Source: Prorocentrum cordatum (Eukaryota). From it: a DNA stretch of 53,789 nt. The position numbers and the translations under genes were made by a program. The first letter of the stretch is position 1, and every line of letters begins with the position of its first letter. A model generated the notes under the pieces. That model ran no database searches. It was not told the DNA's origin and was given only the letters and a program-made list of their open reading frames with translations. Positions 19,939-35,754 of this stretch are shown piece after piece. Where the stretch lies: positions 62,001 through 115,789 of the forward strand of contig CAUYUJ010000287.1 in the NCBI GenBank assembly GCA_963575745.1, written 5' to 3'.

Positions 19939-20008
<70 letters not shown>

Positions 20009-20036
20009 GTGATGGTGATGGTGATGGTGATGGTGA

Positions 20037-20070
<34 letters not shown>

Positions 20071-20320
20071 GGTGGTGGTGGTGGTCGTGATGATGATGAT
20101 GCTGATGATGATGCTGCTGATGATAATGATGATGCTTATGATGATGATGATGATGATGATATTGATGTTGATTCTGATAATGTCGATGCCGATAATGGTG
20201 ATGATGGTGATGGTGATGATGATGCTTATGATGATGTTGATGGTATGATGCTGATGATGAGTCTGCTCCTCATGATGCTGATGATGCTGATGCTGCTGAT
20301 GATGCTGATGATGATGAGGA
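17670..20320. repeat. Compound (GAG)n/(GAT)n microsatellite block containing a ~415-bp tandem duplication (~19270-19685 and ~19685-20090) with (GTATG)n-like repeats
   Basis: GTATGGTATGT.ATTGCACGACACGGTCGGGTATGGCATG starts both copies. Confidence 0.9.
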
Positions 20321-20321
20321 T

Positions 20322-20462
20322 GGTGCAAACCCCGGGGTCATCAACTATGTTGGGACAAACCCTTCCTCCAAGTTCCTTCTTCACAGACCCCTGCAACGGT
20401 TCATCTCCATCGAGGGAACTGCCTCGTTGGAAGACAACCGTTTGAAGACCTTGCAGCATGCC
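20322..20462 (-). repeat. Repeat R, minus-strand copy, 3' part (left flank of the large transposon)
   Basis: The reverse complement matches 15631-15772. Confidence 0.9.
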
Positions 20463-21406: not shown

Positions 21407-22641
21407 GCGGCCAGCTGCGCCCGCCTGTTTTGAGGCGCCACTTGCGCCTGTTGCCCTTCGGTGCTTTCTCGTGGGTCGGGCAGGCGTGGATCAGGGAATA
21501 GAGGGGAGGAGGAGCTTTACGCCCCGTTGCAGGAGTTCAAGCAGGAAGAGGAGTAGGAGGAGGACGACGACGACAATGGCGAACATAGGTGGAAGACGCG
21601 GAGGATGAGGAGCTGTGGCGCCCTCCTCCTCCTCCTCCTCTCCCTCCTCCTCCTCCTCCTCCTCCTCCCAATCCTCCTCCACTGGTGCCTCCTCCGTATC
21701 CTCCTCCACGTCTCCCCATCTTCTGCCAGGCGGTCTGAAATGGGCTCAGCCGACTCCGATTGAAGGGCCATGTGATTTCAAGGTGAATGGCGCCGCAGCC
21801 GCATTTTAAGATGCGCATGCTGACTCTCCCGAGTTTCGAGCAACAGGATTAGCAGCGACAGCGGTGACTAAACAAGAACATGATGTGTTTGGGCATAGGG
21901 GGGCGGTTTCAAGATCGCACCCCCCTTCATCACCACTCCCTTTCTTTTAGATCCTCCTCCATGCTCCCTCCCCCCTCCTCGTCTTCCACAGTGTTCCCTC
22001 ATCCAAGCTCCCTCCCCTCCTCGTCCTCCATGCTCCCTCCCCCCTCATCGGTGATCCCTCCATGCGACCTTTACCACGCCGCGCCTCCCAGGCAGGGTCG
22101 TTGGTGGGTCTGTTTTCGGGACCCCTCGGGCGCAGCGCCAACTCATTGAGAACAGACCCCCCGCCAAATAGACTTAGACCACAAGGAGTCCGACGTGCTC
22201 GTGTTGCTCAAATGGGGGGGCCGCGTGAGGAGTATAGAGAGCGGCCTTCTGGCCTTCTCCTTTCCGTCCCCCTCCTCGCCCCCCCGTCGCGTTCACGCGC
22301 CCCGTTCCGCCCCCCCCCCCCCCCCCCCCCCTCTGCGTCTGCCCATTAGGCTGGCCCCAGGTTGTGACGCCGAATGAGTATTTCATTGCGCCACTGGCTG
22401 AATGTGGGATGGCATGGTAGGAGGAGGAGCAGGGATATGAGATGAGTCTAGGTTGCCTGTATAACTGGTTGCCTGCGTCACAGGTTGTGTTCGTCACTGG
22501 GTGTCTGTGTTCACTGGTTGCCTGTGCCGCTGGTTGTCTGTGGGGCGTGGGATGACTGCAACCCCATTGCCATTCCCCCAAGACACAGGGAGTCTTTGCC
22601 CCTAGAAGGGGCGGGGGGCGGGGGGTCCGCCTGCAAGGCGT

Positions 22642-22675
<34 letters not shown>

Positions 22676-22799
22676 CACCCCACACAGCGTCTCATGCACT
22701 CCACGTTTCGATTTCGTTGCCAATGATTCGTCACCGTTGCGTCGTCAATATTTTCGGCACTGTTGAGTAACGTTTGGTTGCCAGTGGCGTTGCGTAGTG

Positions 22800-22821
22800 T
22801 CCGTAAGAATTTTGGCTCGAG
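22800..22821 (+). promoter_or_regulatory. Spliced-leader-like motif (relict DinoSL)
   Basis: TCCGTAAGAATTTTGGCTCGAG, 18/22 to DinoSL, 56 nt before ATG 22878. Confidence 0.7.
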
Positions 22822-22877
22822 ATCAGAGGCATCTTTCACTTTGAGTGGTTGGTTGGCCGACCTCGACCTTCTTGGGA

Positions 22878-24085
22878 TGGCTGCAAACGCCGATCTTGCC
22901 AGCGTCCTGCTCCGCGTCATGATGCAGCAGATGGCCCCATCGCAGCCACCAGCCCCCCAGCAGCCCACGTTCGGCCTTGGAGATTTGGCGGCGCTGGTTG
23001 CAGCTCAGCAGCCAGCGCAGGCCGCTTCCCATCAGCAACCAGCCCAGCGTGAACAGCCTGCCCCGCAACCAGTCTCCGTTCCTCCTCCCGCTGCCGTCGG
23101 CAAGTCGGTCGCGACGACGGCCAACCCAGACGCCGACAGCCCCATGAAGCTCCTCTTCGGCGACGAGAACCAGAGGGTCAGCACGAGCTACAGGTACCTC
23201 GGCGGAACGTGGAAGTTCAATGCTCGAGTCGCCCCCCCCAGGAAGATGAAGGTCCAGGCCTTGCAGAATTTCGACGCCAAGCGTTTCAGCCCCATCCTTC
23301 TCAGCGGCCTCTGCGACGACGCCGTGGACGAGCTGGTCTTCATTGCGAGCAGCCTAGGTCCCGAGAAACGGATCAAGGACTTCACAGCGAAGTCCAAGGG
23401 CGAGATGAGGGAGGCCATCGCCGCCGAGATCGCCCGAACTTTGGTCACCTACCCGACGCGGCTCAACGACCTCGCCGCCGACCTCTCGAACACTGCCTCC
23501 GCGGCGATCCGCCAGGGCTACCCCGTCAACATCATGCCCGCGAATCGGCGCCAGGCTGGAGGCGTTGACCTTCAGAGCCCGCGCCAGGCTACTGGAATGC
23601 CGGTGCCGCAAGCTGCAGCCCCGAACGCCCAGGCCGTCGTCCAGCACAAGAACCCCGAGAAGGCCGCCACGCCCAAGAAGGATGAGTTCACGAGCCAGCA
23701 TGACTTCGAGAAAGAGTTGTTCGGCGACGACGGGTTCGAGAAAGGTCCTTGCGGTGGGAACGGTGGCGCTTCCAGCAGCGCAGGTGGCAGTGCTACTAAG
23801 CCTGGCGTGGCCGCGCCCGAGGCTACAGCGACTTTCACCCCGTTCAAAGGCAAGGGCCTGAAGCTCACGCCTGAGGGCCGCTTGGAGTTAAGCCCTGAGG
23901 CCTTGCAGCAGCTTTCGCAATTGGCAGCAGCTCAGGGCACCATGCCACCGCAGCCTGAGCAGCCAGCCACCGCCGATGGCCCCGACCAGAAGAAGCAGAA
24001 GACTGGCGATGCCGAGGGGGACAATGACCATGAGCAAGGTGCTTCTAGGGCTGAGCCTATGTTGCTGGCAGGGATGACAATGTGA
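22878..24085 (+). CDS. Transposon accessory protein 2 (~400 aa), unknown function: Q/P/A-rich flanks around a ~125-aa globular domain
   Basis: Long intronless ORF with strong GC3 bias. First ATG after the SL-like motif gives MAANADLASVLL. Confidence 0.85.
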
Positions 24086-24960
24086 AACCGAAGTAGGGAT
24101 GAGCGCAACTTAGCACGCACATAGCAACATAACAATACATATCACATCACATACAATATCACCACGACCAACATTCAACACCCGCCAACTTTGTCATTCC
24201 GTCCTCGGCGACCGCTTGCATAGCCAGCTTGGTTGATCCTCCGTACGGGGGCGCAGAGGCATTCAATGATTGTCGTGCGAGGGGTTTTGCGTCTACGCCG
24301 TTGCGTCTCATAGCCAGCATTCTTATATAGCCAAGTTCGCTTACATCGGCCGCATGCGTCATCGCGCTGCCGAGGGGATCCCGCTGCGTGTCTTTCGCAC
24401 TTCCATTAGGCAGCCCCCCCCCCCCCATCTTCTCAGTCCCGATTTCGCCTCGGCCCTCGGACCACTGTGGTGTTTGAATCGGCGGCCCAAGATCGGCTGC
24501 CAATAACCAGCCACCGTGGAACATGGCCGTGGTTCGCCCCTCGCTTATTCCCCACAGTGCCGCGTGGAATCGCCGCGTGAGGTTTACAGAGCAAGCAGCA
24601 GCAGCATTGCGTGTATCGCCTTCTGGCCGTGCGTATCTCAGTCAGTGATTTGATTGCTAGCAAACGAGCAAACGTGAAACAATATGTAACCTCCAACACA
24701 GGCGCCAATCGGTCCCGTCCTCACCATGCCCTCCCCGCCCTCCCCCACGTCCAATCATTGCCCCCACCGCCCCAACCCCTTACACTGCCCCCCCTCCGAA
24801 CTGCTAACCAGCCTGGGAATCGGCAGATAACGAAATGCCAAGCACATATCAACACTCACAGCAAACGCGCACAGAAATCGCATACAGTCAAACACGCAAT
24901 AGAAACACACACGCCATCCCCATGTAGTCCCGTTCACCTCCTCGCATCATCGACCACCCC

Positions 24961-24982
24961 TCCTTAGCCATTTTGGCTCGAA
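24961..24982 (+). promoter_or_regulatory. Spliced-leader-like motif (relict DinoSL)
   Basis: TCCTTAGCCATTTTGGCTCGAA, 19/22 to DinoSL. A further GCTCAAG lies at 24995-25001. Confidence 0.8.
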
Positions 24983-25044
24983 TTCGAGGCGCATGCTCAA
25001 GGCATACGCCTTGAAGGCATGCTACGCGCTGGACTCTGCGCGCG

Positions 25045-28000
25045 ATGGATGCCCGCCCCCCTGGACGGGGGCAGAGGGGGCCCACGTCCTTGACATGGGA
25101 CCGAACAGTGGCATTAACGATCGATATCAGTGGGCTTACAGACGGCGGCTTTTCAGTATACCAAGTTGGCAATTCTAATTTGGGCGAGTCGCTGTACTGA
25201 CTAGAAGATCATTGGTTGGCTCTGCTCCACATCGGGGGGTTTGCTGCAGTGCACAAGTCGGAGAGGCGAAAGATGTTGTTCGAGAACCTTGGCTCCGCTT
25301 ACGGGCTGAGTGGCAACTGGTTTGACTACGGCGGCACTGGCGGCGTGCCGAGCGTCACGTTGAGGACGGACTTGCAGCTCGCATGGCTCTTGTACAAATA
25401 TCGACATAGCGTAGATGATAGCGGGCGCTCACCTCTCTCGCACAGAGTCAGGCACTGGCTCGAGCTATCCGTTCAAGGGTTGCAGTGTATTCCGACCCAG
25501 GGCGGCTTTGCAGTGACGGTTCACTTCGATGGCAGGGTATCTCCAGACTTACTTCAGCTGGACCGCGACGCAGGGGTGATCCATGGCTGGAGTGATGTCG
25601 TTGCTAGCCAATGCTTCTACAAGCGGTGGTCTGATTTCAATGATGGTGCGGGCAAGTACAGCGCTCTTAGACTACCTGGCGCTGCAAATGCAGTCCCGAA
25701 TGTGCTTCTGTTTCTCCTTGCATCTGTATCACGGGTTGGAGAGTCACGACAACGTTTTGAGCGATGTGCAAAAACTATGCTACAATTTTGTTGCCACGTC
25801 CTGGCCATGGGCATGGAGGCCTTCATCGTGCGCAAGCACGTGCCATCGATGAACCTGGAAGTGTCAGATCGGCTGCAAGAACTGAGATGCGAGAGCCGCC
25901 GACGGAAGCTCGACCCCCAAGCAATATTAGCTGCCATGCAGAGGACACGGGAAGTCGTTGGCTCGAGCAACACGACCGTGACCGCAATCATCAGCGACAA
26001 GAGTTTGGACAGCAGAATATCGTACACGATGGCTTTGTTGCACAGGCAGAAAATGAAACGTTCGTTCCAAGGTTCGGCGACCCTGGCAATGCGTTGGGAC
26101 CCTGGGGGGCATTCACGGAGGAGCTACAACATTGGCCTGGTCGCCCAGACTGTCGTGAAGGACGCCGTCGCAGGGGACATGCACCCAAAGGCAAGGGCGG
26201 CAGCAAATCTCGGTCGGCAACCCGAACGCCCCATGGCTGCTGGACGTCAGCCAATGGGGGCCAAAGCTCTCCAGCGGGGAATCGTTAGAAAAACGCGAGG
26301 GGGGGAGGGGGTTAGGTGTCTTGGGGTGCCAGGAAATATATGAAATAGGGAGGGGATTCCGCTTACAACCTTGATGTAAAAAATCTCCTAAACGTGATGA
26401 AAAAATCCCCCCAGGAATTTGCATCACGGTTTTGTTTGGGGTGAGGTGGGGTTTTGGCGACCTATCCTTGATCTCCCCTCAGCTTTCCCCTGCGGGGGAG
26501 GCACGCCTAGGCTCGACCCTCGGCGCTCCCCCCCTCAGCTTCCCCCCCAGGGGTCAGGCACGTCGGTGTAGGCCTTCGCAGTGAGTCGCCGTCGATCTCG
26601 TCGTAAGGGGTAGGTGCAGAGGGTTTCGTGCCCCTAACCCCCAGGGTCGCCTCGCACGAGATTTGCAGCCGCCCATGCGCCCAAGGCGATTCGCAAGAAG
26701 GTCGACTTGCAGTTCATCGCCGACGACCCCGAGCTGAACCAAGTGTGGATCTGCGACAGGATGGACAGGGAATCGGCCTTCCTCAACATGAGCGTGGTCT
26801 TGACCGAACTACACCAACTCACAGGGTTCAAGGTTGGAGAGTTCAAGGTCCCGCTCAGCCTGAGCCTTCGCCCGATCATGCAAGGCGAGACGCGGCTCGA
26901 GTGGAGCGACGGCATGCGTGTTCTTTTCCATGCCGATCGCGGCACAGCATCGGTGGGAAATACCCAGTGCGTGTTGGCAAGAGCCGTTCAATATAGTCTC
27001 TCACACGACGGATCGGAGCTCGATAAATTCATCTTTGTTGCACTTTCTCATCAACGAGAACTACTTGTTCGTTCCTTGGTTCGACACAATGCATGCGATG
27101 TGGAACGCGGTCAAGAACAGCGCCAGCAAAAAACATGGCCATGGTCTGGACGGAGCAAGGGGTACATGTGGAAAAAGGTGCTCGAGTTTGTCACGATCTG
27201 CAACATGAACACGGGCCCATATGGGTCGTGCCAATGGTTCGACTTGAAGAAGGACCGATGGGGGGGGGGGGGGGGGGGGCGAAACCAGGGCCCACGCGGA
27301 ATCGCTGCCTGGAAGTGAAGCTGGCCTGGGTTTAGTATGTTTTTGATGCGTAGAGCTGGGCACCATTCCACCTCCTGCTCGTCCTCCTCCACCTTCCCCT
27401 CCTCCTCCTCCGCTCTCCTGTCCCTCCCCCATCCGTCGCCCCTCTTTCATCCAGCAACCTGGCCCAGGGGGGTTGGAGGGCAGAGCTCACCCTCCTCTTC
27501 GGACTCTTATGATTTCCTCATCCACCTCCTCCCACCCCTCACACTTGTTTGTAACTTTGCATTACATTGCGCTCCTCAGGACGCGTGTCGTCGGTGTAGC
27601 CAGATGTACGACGAGAACTCCATGGAGTTCGTGGAGATCGCAGGTCTGTTCCGGGATGCGATCGGCATCGACTCAGCTTCATCTTCTGGTTTGAGCTCTA
27701 TATACAGCAGGATGGCCACACTCAGGAGTTGCAATGAGGTGGGGCCTCATCTGAAGCTGATGCGCTTTCTGTCCATCAACGACTGCTGGAAGTGGCACAA
27801 GCGTGAGATCTGGGGACTTCGGGCCATATTAAAGCTAATGGCAGCTGAGCATGGCAAAGGGAGCGCACTGTCTGCCATCGTGACGGCTGGCACGACACAC
27901 GGAGCAACTGACGGCGACGTGCAACAGGCGGCCGACAAGCAGGCAGGGACCATCAAGCGAGCATACACATTGATCAACGAACAGTTTGTCAACGCCCTCT

Positions 28001-30264
28001 CGATATTTTGTGTTACTTCTACTGCCCAGAGGGAACTATACAGCTACCGAGCGACGCACGTCAAAAGCATATCTGATGGACAACCCTTCGACTTCAAAAT
28101 GCAGATGGGTGCGTGGCGTGACGAATTCAAAGGTACCGTGGCAAATTGCATGAACAACGCGGATCTCATCCGCGAATTGGGGCTGCTGGGGGGGACTACA
28201 TCAGCAGAAAGCAAGTCGCACAGCATGGAGGCTTTCGAGTTTATGATGACGCTGATGAAGGAGAGGTTCGACTCCATCTCGCCAGATTTATTTTGCTACC
28301 CAGCCAAGTTCAGGACGGCGCTCGGAGAGACGATGTCAGCGGACGAGCAGAAGGTTGCGAGGCAACGCATCAACTGCGATTGGCAGGTCATTCTCTTGAC
28401 GGAGAAGCACGCCTTGACAATGCCTGATGCGAAGCAGCTCTTGGGGGATACCTTCTGGCTGAAGTGGCCGATCAACCGCTTGGCTTGGGGCCAGAACGAG
28501 CGGGAGTTGAATGCCAACCTCGACATCCAGGACGGTTTCATTCGCACGGCGAGTGCGGCTACACAGCATTGGCCAGACTCGAAGGGGCCAGAGGACGTTC
28601 ACCAGCACATCAGAGATGAGGGCAGGTCTACACGGAACCAACACATCGCCCCGAATCGAGTGTATAGGGCACAGCAGGAGTGCAACATCTCTGGCTCACG
28701 CGGCATGGCAACATTCCAGCTCAACGACATGGAGATTGCCACCAACATTTGCCATCATGACACTATGCACTCCCTGGGTCGCGAGTTCAGGGGGGATCCC
28801 GACTGTCTGCCACGTCGACTTCGGCGTATCTTAGACGGAGGCCACGAGTACAATTCCCCGAATGGACAGTCGTACGCGAAGGCAGGTTCGGCTTGGAAGT
28901 GGCTTTCGCACTGGTCTAAATTGCCCTCCCCAAAACCAAGTTTGCTAAGTTCGTGGCATGGTAGGATGGTGCCAGAGTGTTCCATATTGGTTCATGTCCC
29001 GTCGAAGTCGTACATGGTCGTCATTAGCCAACAGTTGTGGAGCCTCTTTGTGTGCGACCTCCAGAAGGGAAGCAAGGGCGACCTGCAGTATCTCAGGATG
29101 CGAACCGATAGGGCTGCGTTCCACGATTACTTCTTGACTAAGCCTTGGGAGCGCGAGGTCTTGAACATATCCGAGGTGCCCTACGTTGTTGGAGTTGGCA
29201 GGGTTCTCCTTGCGCTGGAGGCCCCCGTGGCACCGTTGGCTGCATCGCTGCTTTCGGGCTTGCCCCTGGCCCTGGACCACATGAACGGCATCGCAGACGA
29301 GATGGGCTTGGACCTCGGAGATGCGAAGACCAATATGATGAAGGCGCGCGGGAAGCTGATTGAACTCTTGTTTGGACTTACGCCTGATCTCGTCTCGAAG
29401 TGCCAGGCCGCCTTCAAGAAAACTAGTCAGGGCAACTCAGAAGCGGACGAGCTCGGCGAGGACTACCTCGACATGCTTGAGGAGATTATGGCCCACGGTG
29501 TTCAGAATTGCAGCGAGATCCAGGCCCTCCGGAAGGATTTGAGGACGAATCGGACGAGACATATGCATGAACAGCGTGCTGTTCGGCGAGCGGCTAAGCT
29601 GGCAGAGCAGCTAGAGAAGAAGAAGCTGAAGTCAGTCCTCAAAGGCAAGTTCGCCCAGGGGATGATGGTGAAGGTAGGTGCGAAAGCAAAGGCCAAGGCA
29701 GCTGCGAAGGCCGACGTTGCAGGCCATCATGTTGGTGGCTCTGGAGATGGTGTTGCTCCGCCAGTTCCAGAGGCAGGCCCTGCCGTTCCTCCACATGGCG
29801 CTGGCGGAGATCCTGGCGCGGCTGACGACGGGGTGATCCCCGAACCTCCCAAGAAGAAGGCGAAGGCTGGCAAGGTTGGCGTATCAAAAGACGGATCGCA
29901 CCCAGTTCCAGCGGTCAAGGTACCTCGTGCTGAACAGTTCGGCCCGTGGACGTTATCAGAGATATACGAGCATGGTGAGTGCGCTGGTTGGGAAGCGCGC
30001 TGCCTCGACCACGTGGACGGAACAGACCTCCGCTGCGTCAAGCACTGCACCATGGGAACGGGCAAGAACGCTTTGACCCACCACACGTGTAAGTTCAAAA
30101 TGAAACAGTGGTTGATCTACGGCCTTCGACCAGAGATCAAGACGAGAGTAGATCATGTGTATACGGATTGTCTCAGAGCAGATCTGCTTCCCAACACAGA
30201 GCCAGAGTTGGACACAATTGCTGAGGATGAGCTCAGGAGGCGGAATAGCAAGGACAAATCATGA
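25045..30264 (+). CDS. Putative DDE transposase, 3 exons (25045-26190, 26686-27252, 27580-30264), ~1465 codons with an in-frame TGA at 25198 (or ~1389 aa from ATG 25273)
   Basis: Three ORF blocks join in phase 0 at AAG|GC...AAG|GC and AAG|GA...CAG|GA. Motif order is LAMRWD (D, 26098), VLFHADRG (D, 26935), RHNACD (H), KLMRFLS, KGPEDVH (E, 28591), followed by a basic/coiled-coil region and a C-terminal C/H-rich module (WEARCLDH...CVKHC...KQWL...H). It lies inside a TSD/TIR-bounded element. Confidence 0.75.
26191..26685 (+). mobile_element. Putative GC-AG intron 1 that is a TIR-bounded (introner/MITE-like) insertion
   Basis: 26191-26212 GCAAGGGCGGCAGCAAATCTCG versus the reverse complement of 26657-26678 GCATGGGCGGCTGCAAATCTCG (20/22). 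Flanked by CCCAAAG and CCCAAG. Confidence 0.75.
27253..27579 (+). other. Putative GA-AG intron 2 of the transposase
   Basis: AAG|GAC donor and CTCCTCAG|GAC acceptor. The interior has a G-run, CCT tracts and an in-frame stop. Removal keeps the frame. Confidence 0.65.
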
Positions 30265-30320
30265 GTGAGTTTCGAGCCTTCTGACACGTTGCCCTGTATG
30301 TTTTTTCAGCACGTATATCC

Positions 30321-30345
30321 TTTTTTTTTTTTTTTTTTTTTTTTT
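30321..30345. repeat. T25 homopolymer followed by a CCT-rich tract
   Basis: Direct reading; 56 nt after the transposase stop. Confidence 0.9.
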
Positions 30346-31714
30346 CTCATCCTCCTCCTTTGCCAACTCCTCCTCCTCCTCCTCACTTTGCCCCCTGCTC
30401 CTCTCCGTCTTACTTGTCCTCGTTTCCTCCTCCTCCTCGCCCTTCTCCTCATCCTTATCTTCCTCACCCACTTCCGTCTGTGGCGCGCGGGCGGCTCCTT
30501 CGCCCGACTCTCGGAGCCGACCGACGCCCGGCGCACGGGCAGCGGCCGCGGGCTCCAGCGATCAGGGGGCGGAGGAGAGAGGGGGCGGATCAGGGGGGGG
30601 AGGAGGGGGCGGACCAGAGGGAGGAGGAAGGAGGAAGGTGGACTGAGCTGAGAGAGCGGCCCCTCCGCCTGTCTCCCGCCTCGCGCCCGCTCGTGAACGC
30701 TTGCTTCCACGAGTTGTGCAAGTTCGGCACTCGAGGAAATTCCACCCGCGACGCGGGGGGGGTGGGGGCGGCCTGGGGGGAGCAAGGAAGGGGCACGAGG
30801 GCACACGCGACGACGAACGACGAGCACGCGACCGCAAGCAGGGACGAATGAACGGGGCGGGGGCGAAGAGGGGGGATGGGCGATGACGAGAACGAGGAGG
30901 GAGAGGAGGGGGACTGACGGGAGGGAGGGAACGGCGATGGGAAGGACCGACGATGGGAGAAGGCGGGCTGTTGGGCAACATGAATACAACACTACCACCT
31001 CTCGTTAGTTAGCGTGGTCCAACACATGCAACTACCAACTCCCCATCACACGTGAGTACACATATGATACTACTGCCCTTAGCACTGAAGCACTGGTGGT
31101 CAGGAGGGGAGAACACGCGCCTAACCGTTACGTATAGACCCCCTTCTCTGGGTGTAATGTGTGTTGGGTCCTTGGGAACCTGGCGAGGGCGCTAAAAAAA
31201 CAGACCCCCCCCCTGGGTGTGTGTGGGGGGCTAGCGAGGTAGTCCGCATGCTACGCGCTCTGCACGTGCTGACGGGATGTGGCATTTCAGGAAGGTTGGG
31301 GAACAACAGAAGGCACGACGGCGACCACAGCGACGACGACGACGACGACTGGGCGACGATGACCACGGAGACGACGACGATTGTGATCATTACGAAGCGG
31401 CGACGGCTCGACTGAAAGTTCGATTACGCGACTTGCGCGAAAGCGACTGCGACGTACGCGACGACAACGAGGACGGCGAGCAGGACTACGGGACCGAAGC
31501 TTACGGCGAATGTGGGGCAGCCCAGGGGGAACACGGCGACTACGGCGACTGATGGGGTCGACCGCGACGACTGATGGGCAATCAAATTGGACGACGACGA
31601 CGACGGCGACGACCGCGACGGCTACGACGATTATGAGACGACTGCTAAGAGGGATATGAAAATAAAAGCAACGTGTTGTTCGGACGACGGCGGCGGCTGC
31701 GACGACGACGGCGA

Positions 31715-31754
<40 letters not shown>

Positions 31755-31873
31755 TACGACTACGACTACGACTACGACGGTGACGAGCACGACGACGATG
31801 ACGCTGACGCTGATGACGGTGGCGACGCCTCTCCCCGTCCCCTTCCTATGTTGCGTCCTCCCCACCATCCTCC

Positions 31874-31895
31874 TACGTCGCCATTTTGGCTCAAG
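31874..31895 (+). promoter_or_regulatory. Near-perfect dinoflagellate spliced-leader sequence
   Basis: TACGTCGCCATTTTGGCTCAAG, 20/22 to DinoSL, last 16 nt exact. Confidence 0.85.
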
Positions 31896-32363
31896 CCTCG
31901 AGGGCGCTACGCGCGCCCGTGGCATGGGCAACGCTACTGCGGTGCACGCCGTGGCCCGAGCTGTTTCGGCCAGTGACGCTGCCGAACGGATTAAAACCCA
32001 CGCTTGTGGGCCCGAGGGGAGTTCCCCGCCTGCGCGGCGGCAGTTGTGCATGGGCGGTTCGCACCTGCCCAGGGTATAGGGGAACGGGTCGTTGCCGCGG
32101 GCGCGCAGGGAAAGCGCGTCCGCCTCGACGCGCCGCCGGGGGTGATCTTGTCGCACAGCTCCCTGGCCAAGCCTGCGCTGTCCTCCGAATCCTGGTCATC
32201 CCCTCTACTTGTGTTATCGTCCTGATGATCTACCTTCAGCTTTTAGCAGTCTTTCTCCTTGCGGCGTTTCCTTTTCACATGCGCGCGTTTTTCTTTCCCC
32301 CGCTATCGTCTTTTGAACGATCCTCCCCCCCCTCCCATCCTGCCCCCAACAGCGGGCCCATGA

Positions 32364-33043
32364 ATGCCAAAACCTTATTCTCGGGATTTCAACGCCACGG
32401 ATCAACCTGACTGCTGCGTCTTGACGACCCTGAATCGTACGAGAGCGCCGCTTTTTGGGACTCCAACACCGCGATTCACCATAACTGTTGCGCCCGCATG
32501 ATCCTGAATCCTTCCAACACGCCAGTTTTGGTACGTTGATCATTCGAATCCGTGAAGCTCTTCCAAATTTTATGGGCGAATGTGCGCGGCGCTAAGGCGA
32601 GAACCACACTTTGAAAATAACAGCCCTCAGTCAGTGAACCTCTTGCACATTTCATAAACGACTGTGCGCGGCGCTAAGGCGAGAGCCACATTTTGACAAC
32701 GCCCCGTCCTCAATCCGTCAGGCTCTTGCAGTTTTCGGAACCCGCCCTCAATCCGTGAAGCTCTTGCAGATTTCCACAATGAATGTGCGCGGCGCTAAGG
32801 CGAGAGCCACATTTTGAAAGCCACCCGTGTTCAATCCATGAAACCCTTGCAAACTTTGAAACGGAATTTGCGCGGCGCTAAGGCGAGAGCCACATTAAAA
32901 ACACCCGCCCTCCGTCTGTGAAGCTGTTACCGCTTTTAAGCTTCAGAGTCATGGGTGGTGAGGAAGTATCAGGCGAAACGCTCTGCCCGCCCTGAACATT
33001 GGCCTCGGAATGCGACATGGAGAAGTTATTTATAAGGAAAAAG
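32364..33043 (-). repeat. Repeat R, minus-strand copy, 5' part (right flank of the large transposon)
   Basis: The reverse complement matches 14010-14492 plus 15478-15635. Confidence 0.9.
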
Positions 33044-33279
33044 GGTGGTGGACAAGGAGGAGGAAGAGGAGGTGGATGAGCAAGATCAGGGGTGAATGCT
33101 TGCAGCCTCGCAGGAGTATTTTGGCACCGCCGACGAAGACGACGCGCGGGTGGTACGCCCCCCCCCCCTACCATGCCCCTGGGCATTGAGAGGCGGATGA
33201 GACGGCGGATGGTGAGGAGGAGGGGCAGCAGGAATGCCGCAGGATGGGGTATTGGAACAGGAGGAAGGGGGATTGACGG

Positions 33280-34030
33280 GTGAGGGATTGGGTGATGGGG
33301 AGGAGGAGGAAGGGGGGGAGGAGGAGGCGGAAGAGGAGGAGGCATTGGACGAGAGGGAGGAGGCGGAGGAGGAGGAGGAGGAGGAGGAAGACGAGGAGTA
33401 GGAGGAGGTGGAGGAGGAGGAGGAGGTCTTGGATAAGGAGGAGGATGACTCGGAGGAAGGTGAGGAGGAGGACGAGCAGGAGGAGGAGGAGGAGGAGGAG
33501 GAGGGGGAGCAGGATGACGAGGAGGAGTAGGAGGATGAGGAGGAAGGAGGAGGAGGAGGAGGAGATGGAGGGGCGGGAGGGGGATAGAGGGAGGGATGAC
33601 TGTCGCAATGATGATGATGCTGGTGAGGATGGTGAGGAGGCTGAGGACGCGGATGCGGCTGAGCATAATGATGCAGGAGTGGCGACGATGAGGGGGATGA
33701 GCGTGAGATGATGCTGTTATTGACGATGGCGGCGACGACGACCACGATGCTGATGGTGCTGATGATGTTGATGCTGATGATGACGATTATGATGATGATG
33801 ATTATGATGATGATGATGCTGAGGATGCTGATGCTGATGCTGACCATGATGATGATGTTGATGGTGATGATAATGCTGCTGATGATGCTGATTGATATTG
33901 CTGCTGATGATGATGGTGATGATGTGGGTGGTCATGATGATGGTGACGACGATGATTCTGTTGATGATGATGCTGCTGCTCATGATGATGAGGATGGCGA
34001 TTCTGATACATATGACAATGATGATGCTAT
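33280..34030. repeat. (GAG)n then (GAT)n microsatellites
   Basis: Direct reading. Confidence 0.9.
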
Positions 34031-35754
34031 TGCCTTGCAGTATTATGCAGGTGGATGCCACAGCTGGGGTCGACGTCGCGTTTTCTGTTTGTTTCCTTAT
34101 GTACGTATCTGCTTACAGTTTGTAGTCATGCAGTCTTACGTGATTATATACCCGATGAAGCGTCTGTTACTTTGGATGGCAAGGATTATGTTGTTGATGG
34201 CGTTGCACTGCAGCGAGGAGGTGTATTACATTGACACTGCTGATGATGACAGGGGCATTGGTTGCAGTGTCACTCGGTGCGTTTGTACCCAAGTGGCCTT
34301 TGTTCTGATTGTCACGAGTTCCTTGAGGAACCTCGACATGTTTGTGCTTGGGTCGACCAGGACATGACTACTCTGGGGTTCTTAATAAGCATGGCCCCCC
34401 CCCGACGGGGGTCAACCTCGCCTCGTTGTCGCGCCGCGACGGGGGTCGGAGCACCTTCGGCGCGCGGTGGCTGCCCGCGACGGGGTCGATGTGGGGCTGT
34501 CGGAAGGAGTGACGCCTCCCCGACGCTTGTTAAGAAACTCGGAGTACCTTTGATCAGTGGCATTCGCATCCTTCAGACAAGCGACCTCCTGTTCGTCTCG
34601 TCTCAACATGGATGTGTATGTTACCCCGCCCACTGCGAGTTGACCCCTGAGCACCAGGAGAAGGTCGGCGCATGTGATACCTGTAGTGATGGTCATCACT
34701 CCCAGCCAGACTGGGTCGGGGGCCACTGGAGTGGGTGCTGACTTGACCCCCAGTCCAGTTCTGCGCCAGAACTGCAGAGCCCAATGCCATCAGGAATTGG
34801 CTGCTGAGCGGTGGACTCGCGCGTCCTTTCCCTTGTTCAGGAGCGCGGAAACGGGGTGGGGGGGCTCAGGCTGGGGGGAACATCGTCCACCACTCGCCAA
34901 GTCATCGCCGTCTGGGACATTCAGGAGGGTAAATACACACGGACACAATTAATCGTCGACTCCCAGGAAAATATGGGAGCATATGGCAAGGTCGGGGAAC
35001 ACGAAAACCCAGGAAATATGGGAAAATATAGGGGGATCCTGGGATTTGGGTGTATTTATTTGTGTGTCCTTGGGTCCCTTTGGGTGCTCCACCATGCACA
35101 GGAGTGTGCGGTCTTGACATCGGGGGCCGACCGCAGATCTGTCGGCTTCGACTCCAGGGCGAGGTTTCCCGTCTGTGAGTCAGTCCCCTCCCCCCCTGAT
35201 TCTCTTCGGACCTTCCGCCCTGGCCTTGCGCCTCTTTTCTGACAAGATCCATGGGCGTTTTCTTGAACTGCGTAAGGTTTCTCAGGAGCTCCGATGAACT
35301 CTTCCGCACCGTCTGCGGAGGTCGGATGGTATGGCGGGTGGATGTGGAGGGCCCCGCTGTTCGGAGCTCCTCGCTCCCTTGCCCTTCCGCACCCGCACGG
35401 CCAGAAAGCGCTGCCCTGCACTGCCGCCTCGACGGCCTCGGGCGAGCTGCTCTGCTACGTCCCCTCCGCGAAGTTCGTGGGCGTGCCCAGTGCCGCTCTC
35501 CGCCGTTTGCAGCGGCCGCCGCCCCGTCGCCGGCGCCGCCTCTCCGTCGATAGACGCTTCGCTGCCGCTGCTGCCGCTGCTCCTGATGTCACCGAGCGCG
35601 TTCCACCTCTCGCGAAGCGCCTACTCGCCGACCTCGGAAAAGCACAAAGTTGCCTCGACGCAGTGGGTCTTGAATCCCCGGCGGCGGATCCAGGCCACTT
35701 GCGAGTGGCTACTATTGCGAGTGGTGGAACGCACTTGTCTATGATGCTTCTCCT

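Follow-up and report, generated by a model that had tools for sequence, protein, structure and literature searches.

Architecture of the locus

A 53,789-nucleotide (nt) stretch of Prorocentrum cordatum DNA, referred to here as the window, carries on its plus strand, at 25045-30264, a long split gene that appears to be a decayed copy of a large protein family, the intact members of which are probably very divergent cut-and-paste transposases of the Asp-Asp-Glu (DDE) type. Stop-free stretches were sought in frame 1 of this strand, and 25201-26343, 26638-27318 and 27319-30264 were recovered. The longest run comprises 981 codons; when the window was shuffled 30 times, the longest run was 240 codons on average and at most 340. 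All exon pieces, including one that is read in frame 2, show a coding-type composition, with G+C contents of 0.63-0.80 at third codon positions and 0.37-0.47 at second codon positions.

A preliminary description of this DNA had proposed that three open reading frames (ORFs) join in frame across a GC-AG and a GA-AG intron, with AG/G at all four boundaries (a slash within letters or between coordinates marks the junction). Our reading of the DNA agrees. With the two introns removed, the three pieces yield a joined conceptual product of 1,465 codons, collinear with a 1,462-residue P. cordatum protein, P0001, so the hidden gene of about 1.4-1.5 thousand amino acids suspected earlier is indeed there. 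The words from which it had been recognized (LAMRWD, VLFHAD, RF-x-S within KLMRFLS, and GPEDVH) are all present in the frame-1 translation. The pieces and introns also fit the homologues, but an uninterrupted product from 25045, as then assumed, overlooks an in-frame TGA and two frameshifts.

Exon 1 (25045-26190) would encode the N-terminal domain and the first strands of the putative catalytic core, and contains the in-frame TGA (25198-25200). It is followed by intron 1 (GC-AG, 26191-26685), which holds an element with inverted ends. Exon 2 (26686-27252) is read in frame 1 at 26686-26955, in frame 2 at 26957-27139 and again in frame 1 at 27139-27252. Beyond intron 2 (GA-AG, 27253-27579), which contains a G run and a CT-rich simple repeat, exon 3 (27580-30264) would supply a presumed insertion domain, the Glu motif, a conserved C-terminal region, a K/A/G/P-rich linker, a C/H-rich tail and the stop codon; it matches positions 198-988 of the family hidden Markov model (HMM) with an E-value of 3e-176. 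A tblastn comparison of P0001 with the window found one collinear copy spanning P0001 residues 8-1462 at 53-55% identity. On the plus strand, residues 8-380 align at 25063-26175 (55% identity, with a stop opposite a Trp), residues 380-581 at 26644-27255, residues 598-651 at 27577-27738 and residues 644-1462 at 27889-30258 (53% identity).

A large protein family outside the domain databases

A word-indexed search with the third piece returned three proteins, namely P0001 and P0002 from P. cordatum and P0003 from a data set labelled Pyramimonas; further word-indexed protein searches recovered close relatives only. An exhaustive HMMER search with P0001 residues 1-1181 as the query identified 484 representatives at E<=1e-3, 214 at E<=1e-10 and 43 at E<=1e-30. 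Named sources include P. cordatum, Polarella glacialis, Fugacium kawagutii, Cladocopium sp. and C. goreaui, the remainder being contigs from ENA, Logan and JGI. Members share just 15-25% identity. A quick tree of 33 rows placed the window copy and P0001 as a sister pair (support 99), joined by P0006 and P0007 (support 100). No relatives were found in the viral, metagenome and prokaryote contig collections with P0001, P0123, P0010, the window protein or the family alignment as queries, and scanning the viral contigs with a back-translated hAT motif gave six chance matches and no hAT element. By these comparisons, the family is large and deeply diverged, so far known only from dinoflagellates and such contigs, and absent from domain databases. 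P0003, P0005 and P0171 are filed under the green alga Pyramimonas sp. CCMP1952 (EukProt), and P0005 is 84% identical to P0001; the filing probably reflects dinoflagellate material within that data set.

Homology extends well beyond the core. Across the family it takes in the N-terminal ~340 residues, and conservation continues for ~300 residues past the conserved Glu, up to P0001 residue 1183. The extra C-terminal region described earlier as ending in a likely zinc-binding Cys/His module does contain a C/H-rich, putatively zinc-binding module, at 29956-30123 (..ECAGWEARCLDH..CVKHC..HHTC..), for which no PDB or Pfam match was obtained. It is confined, though, to the closest subfamily: the C/H-rich tail is common to P0001, P0002, P0005 and P0006 only, and most other members end in a PPGC..DHRF..W.KW module.

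Conserved motifs of the putative catalytic core

Conservation was counted over an alignment of 32 long members, with fractions given over the rows that have the column and residues numbered as in P0001. The first candidate catalytic Asp, D352 (26098-26100), ends the pattern h-x-h-x-W-D-P-(S/G) and is kept in 14/15 rows. The second, D501 (27011-27013, frame 2), stands in (S/T)-D-(Q/R)-(G/S)..N in 31/32 rows. It is followed by a D-x-x-H motif (FDTMHAMWN; 27083-27094, frame 2), the His of which, H528 at 27092, is invariant (32/32) and is accompanied by W, N and K in 28, 30 and 30 of the 32 rows, respectively. H528 lies 27 residues past D501 in P0001 and about 27-30 residues past it in the family. 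A K..RW.S word comes next (K 30/30, R 30/30, W 29/30, S 28/30), represented in the window by K-L-M-R-F-L-S at 27754-27774; these window residues were read from the DNA, as the automatic alignment left them unaligned. The window copy, P0002, P0003 and P0007 have R-F instead of R-W, and the RF-x-S word noticed previously therefore matches the family pattern R-[W/F]-x-S.

The candidate catalytic Glu, E877, is present in 32/32 rows, 376 residues past D501 in P0001, and opens the window segment E-D-V-H-Q-H-I-R-D-E-G-R (28591-28626). Its surroundings are similarly constrained, with H880 at +3 (32/32), Arg or Lys at position 884, +7 (31/32), Asp at +8 (30/32) and R888 at +11 (31/32), giving the family context G-D-S-K..E-D-x-H-Q-H-x-R-D..R. 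An Arg or Lys seven residues past the Glu is a classical feature of DDE enzymes. E814 and R839 are likewise found in 32/32 rows each. Every near-invariant core column that aligned is kept in the window copy. A propensity profile over the 32 sequences, which is crude and weak, gave the order strand-Asp, strand, strand, long helix, extra segment, strand-Asp, strand-DxxH and helix.

The acidic triad first suggested for this locus stands in part. The Asp at 26098 and the Glu at 28591 proved conserved, whereas the Asp at codon 26935 (VLFHAD) did not: P0001 has VLFNES at this point, the column is not among the conserved ones, and the real Asp is at 27011. The His placed about 50 residues further on came from a frame-1 reading (RHNACD), while the conserved His is the frame-2 residue at 27092. 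Both residues were misassigned because the two frameshifts, which put the true second Asp and the D-x-x-H His into frame 2, had gone unseen.

Identity of the family protein

On the strength of these motifs, we regard the intact family protein as a very divergent DDE cut-and-paste transposase of the D-x-x-H group, with hAT as its nearest model, and assign this reading a probability of about 0.6. A D-D-[C/D]xxH-E signature is described as common to hAT, Kolobok, P, MuDR, Dada and IS256 transposases (PMC3706591). Its four motifs are present in the family in the same order and each is conserved, a correspondence that holds at the level of motifs only. Two features of hAT enzymes are found as well: a C-x-x-H or D-x-x-H soon after the second Asp, with the His in 32/32 rows, and an R-W pair between the second Asp and the Glu, which is equated with R318-W319 of Hermes by motif order only. 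According to the sources consulted, the key residues of Hermes are D180, D248, R318, W319 and E572 (PMC6027215), H268 of its C-x-x-H lies in the active site, and basic residues past the Glu contact the transposon ends (PMC4763223). In Hermes, D180, D248, H268, R318-W319 and E572 together make up the active site and help hairpin formation.

By analogy, an RNase H-like core would carry the family motifs. A hydrophobic strand ending in W-D-P would supply the first Asp, and a second strand, ending in S-D-Q-G..N, the second Asp. The D-x-x-H would follow, then a stretch of ~350 residues with K..R-W.S, and then the invariant Glu with its His at +3 and Arg/Lys at +7. Such a protein would cut DNA as Hermes does. 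Searches with language-model features point in the same direction: for residues 300-960 of P0123, the nearest named clusters were FAM200-ZBED5_RNase-like, DUF659, ZBED1_RNase-like and Dimer_Tnp_hAT, at scores of 0.80-0.83, and a first search had returned clusters without a name only, at 0.86-0.87. Scores below 0.9 are under the level that counts, a level not calibrated on protein parts, and these neighbours serve as a lead only.

Several results weigh against a transposase, or against its hAT affinity. Pfam gave no match for the three window pieces, P0001, P0002 or 42 members at E<=0.01, and merely scattered, weak and unrelated matches for 39 members at E<=10; in particular, neither the hAT C-terminal domain (Dimer_Tnp_hAT) nor a BED finger was matched in these searches. 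NCBIfam gave no relevant match for 10 members, and PDB profile searches with three family alignments gave either no match or a match to the K/G/R-rich low-complexity linker or tail only. The N-terminal 340 residues contain no Cys/His cluster in an alignment of 17 sequences. Additionally, neither terminal inverted repeats nor a target-site duplication were found around the window copy, the best inverted match between 22000-25100 and 30200-33500 being 11 nt long; the copy may, however, be a retrocopy, so the missing ends say little about the family. The low language-model scores belong here too.

These points give some substance to the view that the family consists of host proteins specific to the dinoflagellate lineage, with a different fold and function, in which the D/D/H/E pattern is a chance resemblance picked out by eye. 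The absence of any link to Pfam, NCBIfam or PDB sequences, the element ends not found at the window copy, the language-model scores below 0.9, and the introns and spliced-leader relic, as in host genes, would all agree with it. We nevertheless consider this explanation unlikely. Five separate motifs occur in the order known from hAT, P, Kolobok and MuDR enzymes, at broadly comparable spacing, and are invariant or near-invariant among proteins of 15-25% identity. Nine of the ten best named language-model clusters belong to the same family or clan as the top one, and those listed are mostly of the hAT type. Furthermore, like transposon families, this one is large and highly varied and includes many fragments and dead copies.

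Doubt may also attach to the hAT affinity itself. P elements and THAP9 are defined by a THAP finger, P-element transposase domains and a GTP-binding insertion, and P-type enzymes use the Asp form of the motif, D-x-x-H. The family has D-x-x-H rather than C-x-x-H, a motif that, with a basic residue behind it, several superfamilies share (PMC3706591), and neither a hAT C-terminal domain nor a BED finger turned up in the Pfam results and the N-terminal alignment, so that a D-x-x-H-group transposase nearer P/THAP9, Kolobok, MuDR or Dada, or one forming its own superfamily, has a certain appeal. We hold such a placement to be doubtful: the R-W word matches R318-W319 of Hermes (PMC6027215), the named language-model neighbours are hAT-type and not P or MuDR, and no THAP, FLYWCH or P-element transposase domain was matched by Pfam in the members searched. 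The hAT-type signature advanced in the preliminary description thus survives in a reduced form; the order D..D..DxxH..RW..E fits, but the positions given for the second Asp and the His were wrong, and the order is common to P, Kolobok and MuDR too.

Lesions in the window copy

The transposase reading applies to intact family members, whereas the window copy carries three disabling changes. The TGA at 25198-25200 stands opposite a Trp of P0001 (LY-stop-LEDHW against LHWLQDHW). Within exon 2, positions 8-109 of the family HMM match the frame-1 ORF at 26638-27315, positions 102-165 match the frame-2 ORF at 26864-27205 (E 2.9e-20), and positions 164-200 match frame 1 again. The frame-2 stretch at 26957-27139 translates as EIPSACWQEPFNIVSHTTDRSSINSSLLHFLINENYLFVPWFDTMHAMWNAVKNSASKKHG and is 69% identical to P0001 residues 483-540 (E 3e-28). 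The reading frame changes by a +1 shift near 26956, with one surplus base in the G run 26955-26957, and returns by a -1 shift near 27139, one base being missing at CC 27139-27140. With an in-frame stop and two frameshifts, the copy is, as read from its DNA, dead and unable to make the enzyme.

Near-identical copies in other contigs bear on whether these changes are real. A Logan contig from a separate DNA run (X1) aligns gaplessly to 26600-27166, differing by three substitutions, and thus spans both shift sites; an assembly error is therefore unlikely for the shifts, unless X1 is the source sample of the window. The near-identical copies have lesions of their own: X1 lacks 17 nt at 29655, and in X3 a Trp codon at 28458 has become a stop. 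Over the exons, the window and X1 differ by 13 synonymous and 19 non-synonymous changes, which indicates weak constraint.

The notion that the stop and both frameshifts are assembly errors in an intact, expressed gene draws on the position of the shifts in short homopolymers (GGG, and CC beside an A6 run), on the fact that they cancel each other, and on the X1 contig over 25136-25513, where five of the seven differences were placed and X1 need not share the TGA at 25198. We judge it improbable. The gapless X1 contig speaks against it, less forcefully if X1 is the window's source sample; a change of TGG to TGA is not a homopolymer error; and both the disabling changes in related copies and the 13:19 ratio fit a gene no longer under firm constraint.

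Splice junctions and intron age

The W-D-P motif occurs in 15 of the 18 N-terminal relatives examined. In 12 of those 15, conservation stops at ..D-(L/M)-x-P-K and is followed by Ala, Val or Asp and then unrelated residues. A Lys followed by one of these three corresponds to read-through of AAG/GC, AAG/GT or AAG/GA, which places the donor exactly at 26190/26191. On the acceptor side, the only in-frame AG acceptors beyond the frame-1 stop at 26635-26637 and ahead of the conserved KKVDLQF are 26686 and 26698. Joining 26190/26686 gives ..AVAGDMHPK/AIRKKVDLQF, gapless against uninterrupted long relatives such as KVAGYLLNQQMAH-IRVSEI. HMM scores over 69 candidate junction pairs ranked 26190/26686 second (64.6 against 67.4 bits), without sharp separation. 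An alternative GT-AG pair for intron 1, 26212/26645, is possible and would add 21 residues resembling extras in P. cordatum gene models. For intron 2, the join 27252/27580 (WFDLKK/DACRRCSQMY) is gapless against P0006 and P0007, which are single ORFs across this point; P0003 carries an unspliced intervening stretch at the site. Both junctions proposed in the preliminary description accordingly fit the relatives, homologue alignment having been suggested there as one of the checks. No joined, intron-free form was present among the contigs aligned to the locus.

The claim that GC and GA donors are common in dinoflagellates is borne out for Symbiodiniaceae, in which they are reported to make up 25-74% of introns (PMC11453091). 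A preprint (10.1101/2020.10.14.339549) describes GC donors as marking older introns and GA donors younger ones. At this locus, the intron 1 site is common to 12 of 15 diverged relatives, and intron 2 is absent from P0006 and P0007; judged by these distributions, the GC-AG intron 1 is old and subfamily-wide and the GA-AG intron 2 is limited to the closest clade. Intron 2 contains a G run of about 22 bases (27262-27283) followed by the CT-rich simple repeat (27355-27545), and thousands of unrelated contigs match 27367-27411 inside this repeat.

That the pieces remain unspliced and the element encodes two or three separate proteins, a 370-residue ORF1 and a 1,050-residue ORF2, is very improbable: many relatives are recorded as separate proteins of ~370 and ~1,050 residues and P0003 is unspliced at intron 2, but 13 long-type members cross the intron 1 position in a single unbroken frame, the break would come directly behind strand three of the putative core, the conserved part of ORF1-type pieces ends precisely at AAG/G[C/T/A], and the separate database proteins were called on raw contigs, probably without intron modelling.

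Intron 1 as a candidate introner-like element

The preprint on dinoflagellate introner-like elements (10.1101/2020.10.14.339549) describes them as carrying inverted repeats, a splice site contributed by a short duplication, and the pattern gact...agGACT. Intron 1 has inverted ends and a duplication abutting its splice sites. Its arms, at 26191-26212 and 26657-26678 on the plus strand, are complementary at 20/22 positions, and the left arm opens with the first base of the intron. The best arm pairs obtained from 300 resamples of the region matched at 14-17/22 positions, and the arm core occurs at just these two sites in the window, against 0.14 expected. The element is flanked by a direct repeat, CCCAAAG at 26184-26190 and CCCAAG at 26680-26685, with one base between the right arm and CCCAAG. 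Excising 26191-26685 takes out the element together with one repeat copy and restores the frame. The intron termini are paired in both the minimum-free-energy and the centroid RNA fold (z -2.49). Each intron of the gene agrees with the published pattern at three of four letters, intron 1 reading gcaa...ag/GCGA and intron 2 gacc...ag/GACG.

By these features, intron 1 looks like an introner-type transposon insertion within a transposase-like gene. As the intron position is shared with diverged relatives, the intron may predate the element. An old position combined with arms that are still 91% complementary may mean that the element entered an existing intron or that the pairing has been maintained.

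Origin of the copy

Upstream of the coding region, a relic of the dinoflagellate spliced leader (DinoSL), TCCTTAGCCATTTTGGCTCGAA, lies on the plus strand at 24961-24982, separated from the ATG by 62 nt. It agrees by eye at 19/22 positions with the leader DCCGUAGCCAUUUUGGCUCAAG, as given in PMC6050394. The 13-base core GCCATTTTGGCTC is exact at 24967-24979; the window contains two exact copies, at 24967 and 31880, where 0.07 would be expected. Such relics are reported to be the mark of genes that returned to the genome from trans-spliced RNA, and retrogenes with introns are described in the same source (PMC6050394). A leader relic directly upstream of the coding region is what dinoflagellate retrogenes have, and, taken together with the lack of terminal inverted repeats, it suggests that the window copy is probably an intron-retaining retrocopy that has since decayed. 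In this scheme, RNA that was trans-spliced but not cis-spliced would have been reverse-transcribed and laid down at the locus, a route known in dinoflagellates; after insertion, the copy would have gained the stop codon and the two frameshifts, scrambling the second Asp and the D-x-x-H motif. Two points weigh on the other side: no poly(A) tract follows the gene, and a leader relic with introns is also expected of an ordinary host gene.

A second, better preserved leader relic (..CGTCGCCATTTTGGCTCAAG) is located at 31874-31896 on the plus strand and suggests another leader-tagged retrocopy downstream. A T26 run at 30325-30350, about 60 nt past the stop codon, could be the tail of a minus-strand insert.

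Surroundings of the locus

A 452-codon ORF at 22727-24085 on the plus strand, rich in Q, P and A and without a Pfam match, may be an adjacent gene of a unidirectional array. Upstream of it are two C runs of 20-30 bases, at 22289-22331 and 22638-22680, about 340 nt apart. Long triplet-type simple repeats (GAT/GGT, GAC and GAG) surround the locus at 20000-20350, 31300-31830 and 33200-34050, and give rise to many spurious long ORFs on both strands. Searches of 39 other ORFs of the window against Pfam and of the whole window against Rfam returned no relevant match.

Significance

In the huge genomes of dinoflagellates, most genes lack annotation. The present family of at least 484 sequence clusters, without a Pfam, NCBIfam or PDB sequence match, displays every motif of the set known from the hAT, P, Kolobok and MuDR enzymes. 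If the fold were confirmed, the family would represent a new deep branch, perhaps a superfamily, of eukaryotic cut-and-paste transposases, would let annotators recognize a common "dark" gene by a model, and would offer a candidate enzyme for the DNA elements of dinoflagellate genomes, introners included. A 2025 survey describes most introners as non-autonomous and ~72% of them as unclassified (PMC12130899). A far-reaching and distinctly improbable extension would see the family as a dinoflagellate-restricted, hAT-like DDE superfamily that acts as the autonomous partner of some inverted-repeat introners, has its own gene split by one of them, and also spreads by retroposition of trans-spliced RNA. 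The window locus unites three dinoflagellate peculiarities, namely GC/GA donors, a transposon-like intron and a leader-tagged, intron-keeping retrocopy, the last two as read here from the DNA.

Comparison with known systems

The hAT transposases (Hermes, Ac and hobo; Hermes structure PDB 4D1Q, according to PMC6027215) resemble the family in the succession Asp, Asp, [C/D]-x-x-H, R-W and distant Glu, in the basic residues past the Glu, and in the several hundred residues ahead of it. They differ in many respects. No similarity of the family to any hAT Pfam model or to the Hermes sequence was detectable, and the family protein is two to three times longer, with an extra N-terminal domain of ~340 residues, ~60 inserted residues separating the first helix from the second Asp, and ~300 conserved residues past the Glu. 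The family Trp precedes the first Asp (W-D-P), whereas W182 of Hermes stands two residues after it (PMC4763223), and the window copy shows neither an 8-bp duplication nor short inverted ends. The P/THAP9, Kolobok, MuDR, Dada and IS256 enzymes share the D..D..DxxH..E signature (PMC3706591), but the family has no THAP or FLYWCH domain, no known DNA-binding head and no Pfam match.

In comparison with introner-like elements (10.1101/2020.10.14.339549; PMC12130899), intron 1 shares the inverted ends at the 5' splice site and the direct repeat, and both introns follow the gHNN...ag/GHNN pattern at three of four letters each. Unlike those elements, its right arm stops 7 nt short of the 3' splice site, its direct repeat measures 6-7 nt instead of 4 or 8, the 53.8-kb window contains the element only once, and its position is common to 12 of 15 diverged relatives. 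Apart from having no poly(A) tract after the gene, the window copy is like the dinoflagellate retrogenes with relic DinoSL (PMC6050394; PMC5585692), with which it shares a leader relic just 5' of the ATG and the retention of its introns.

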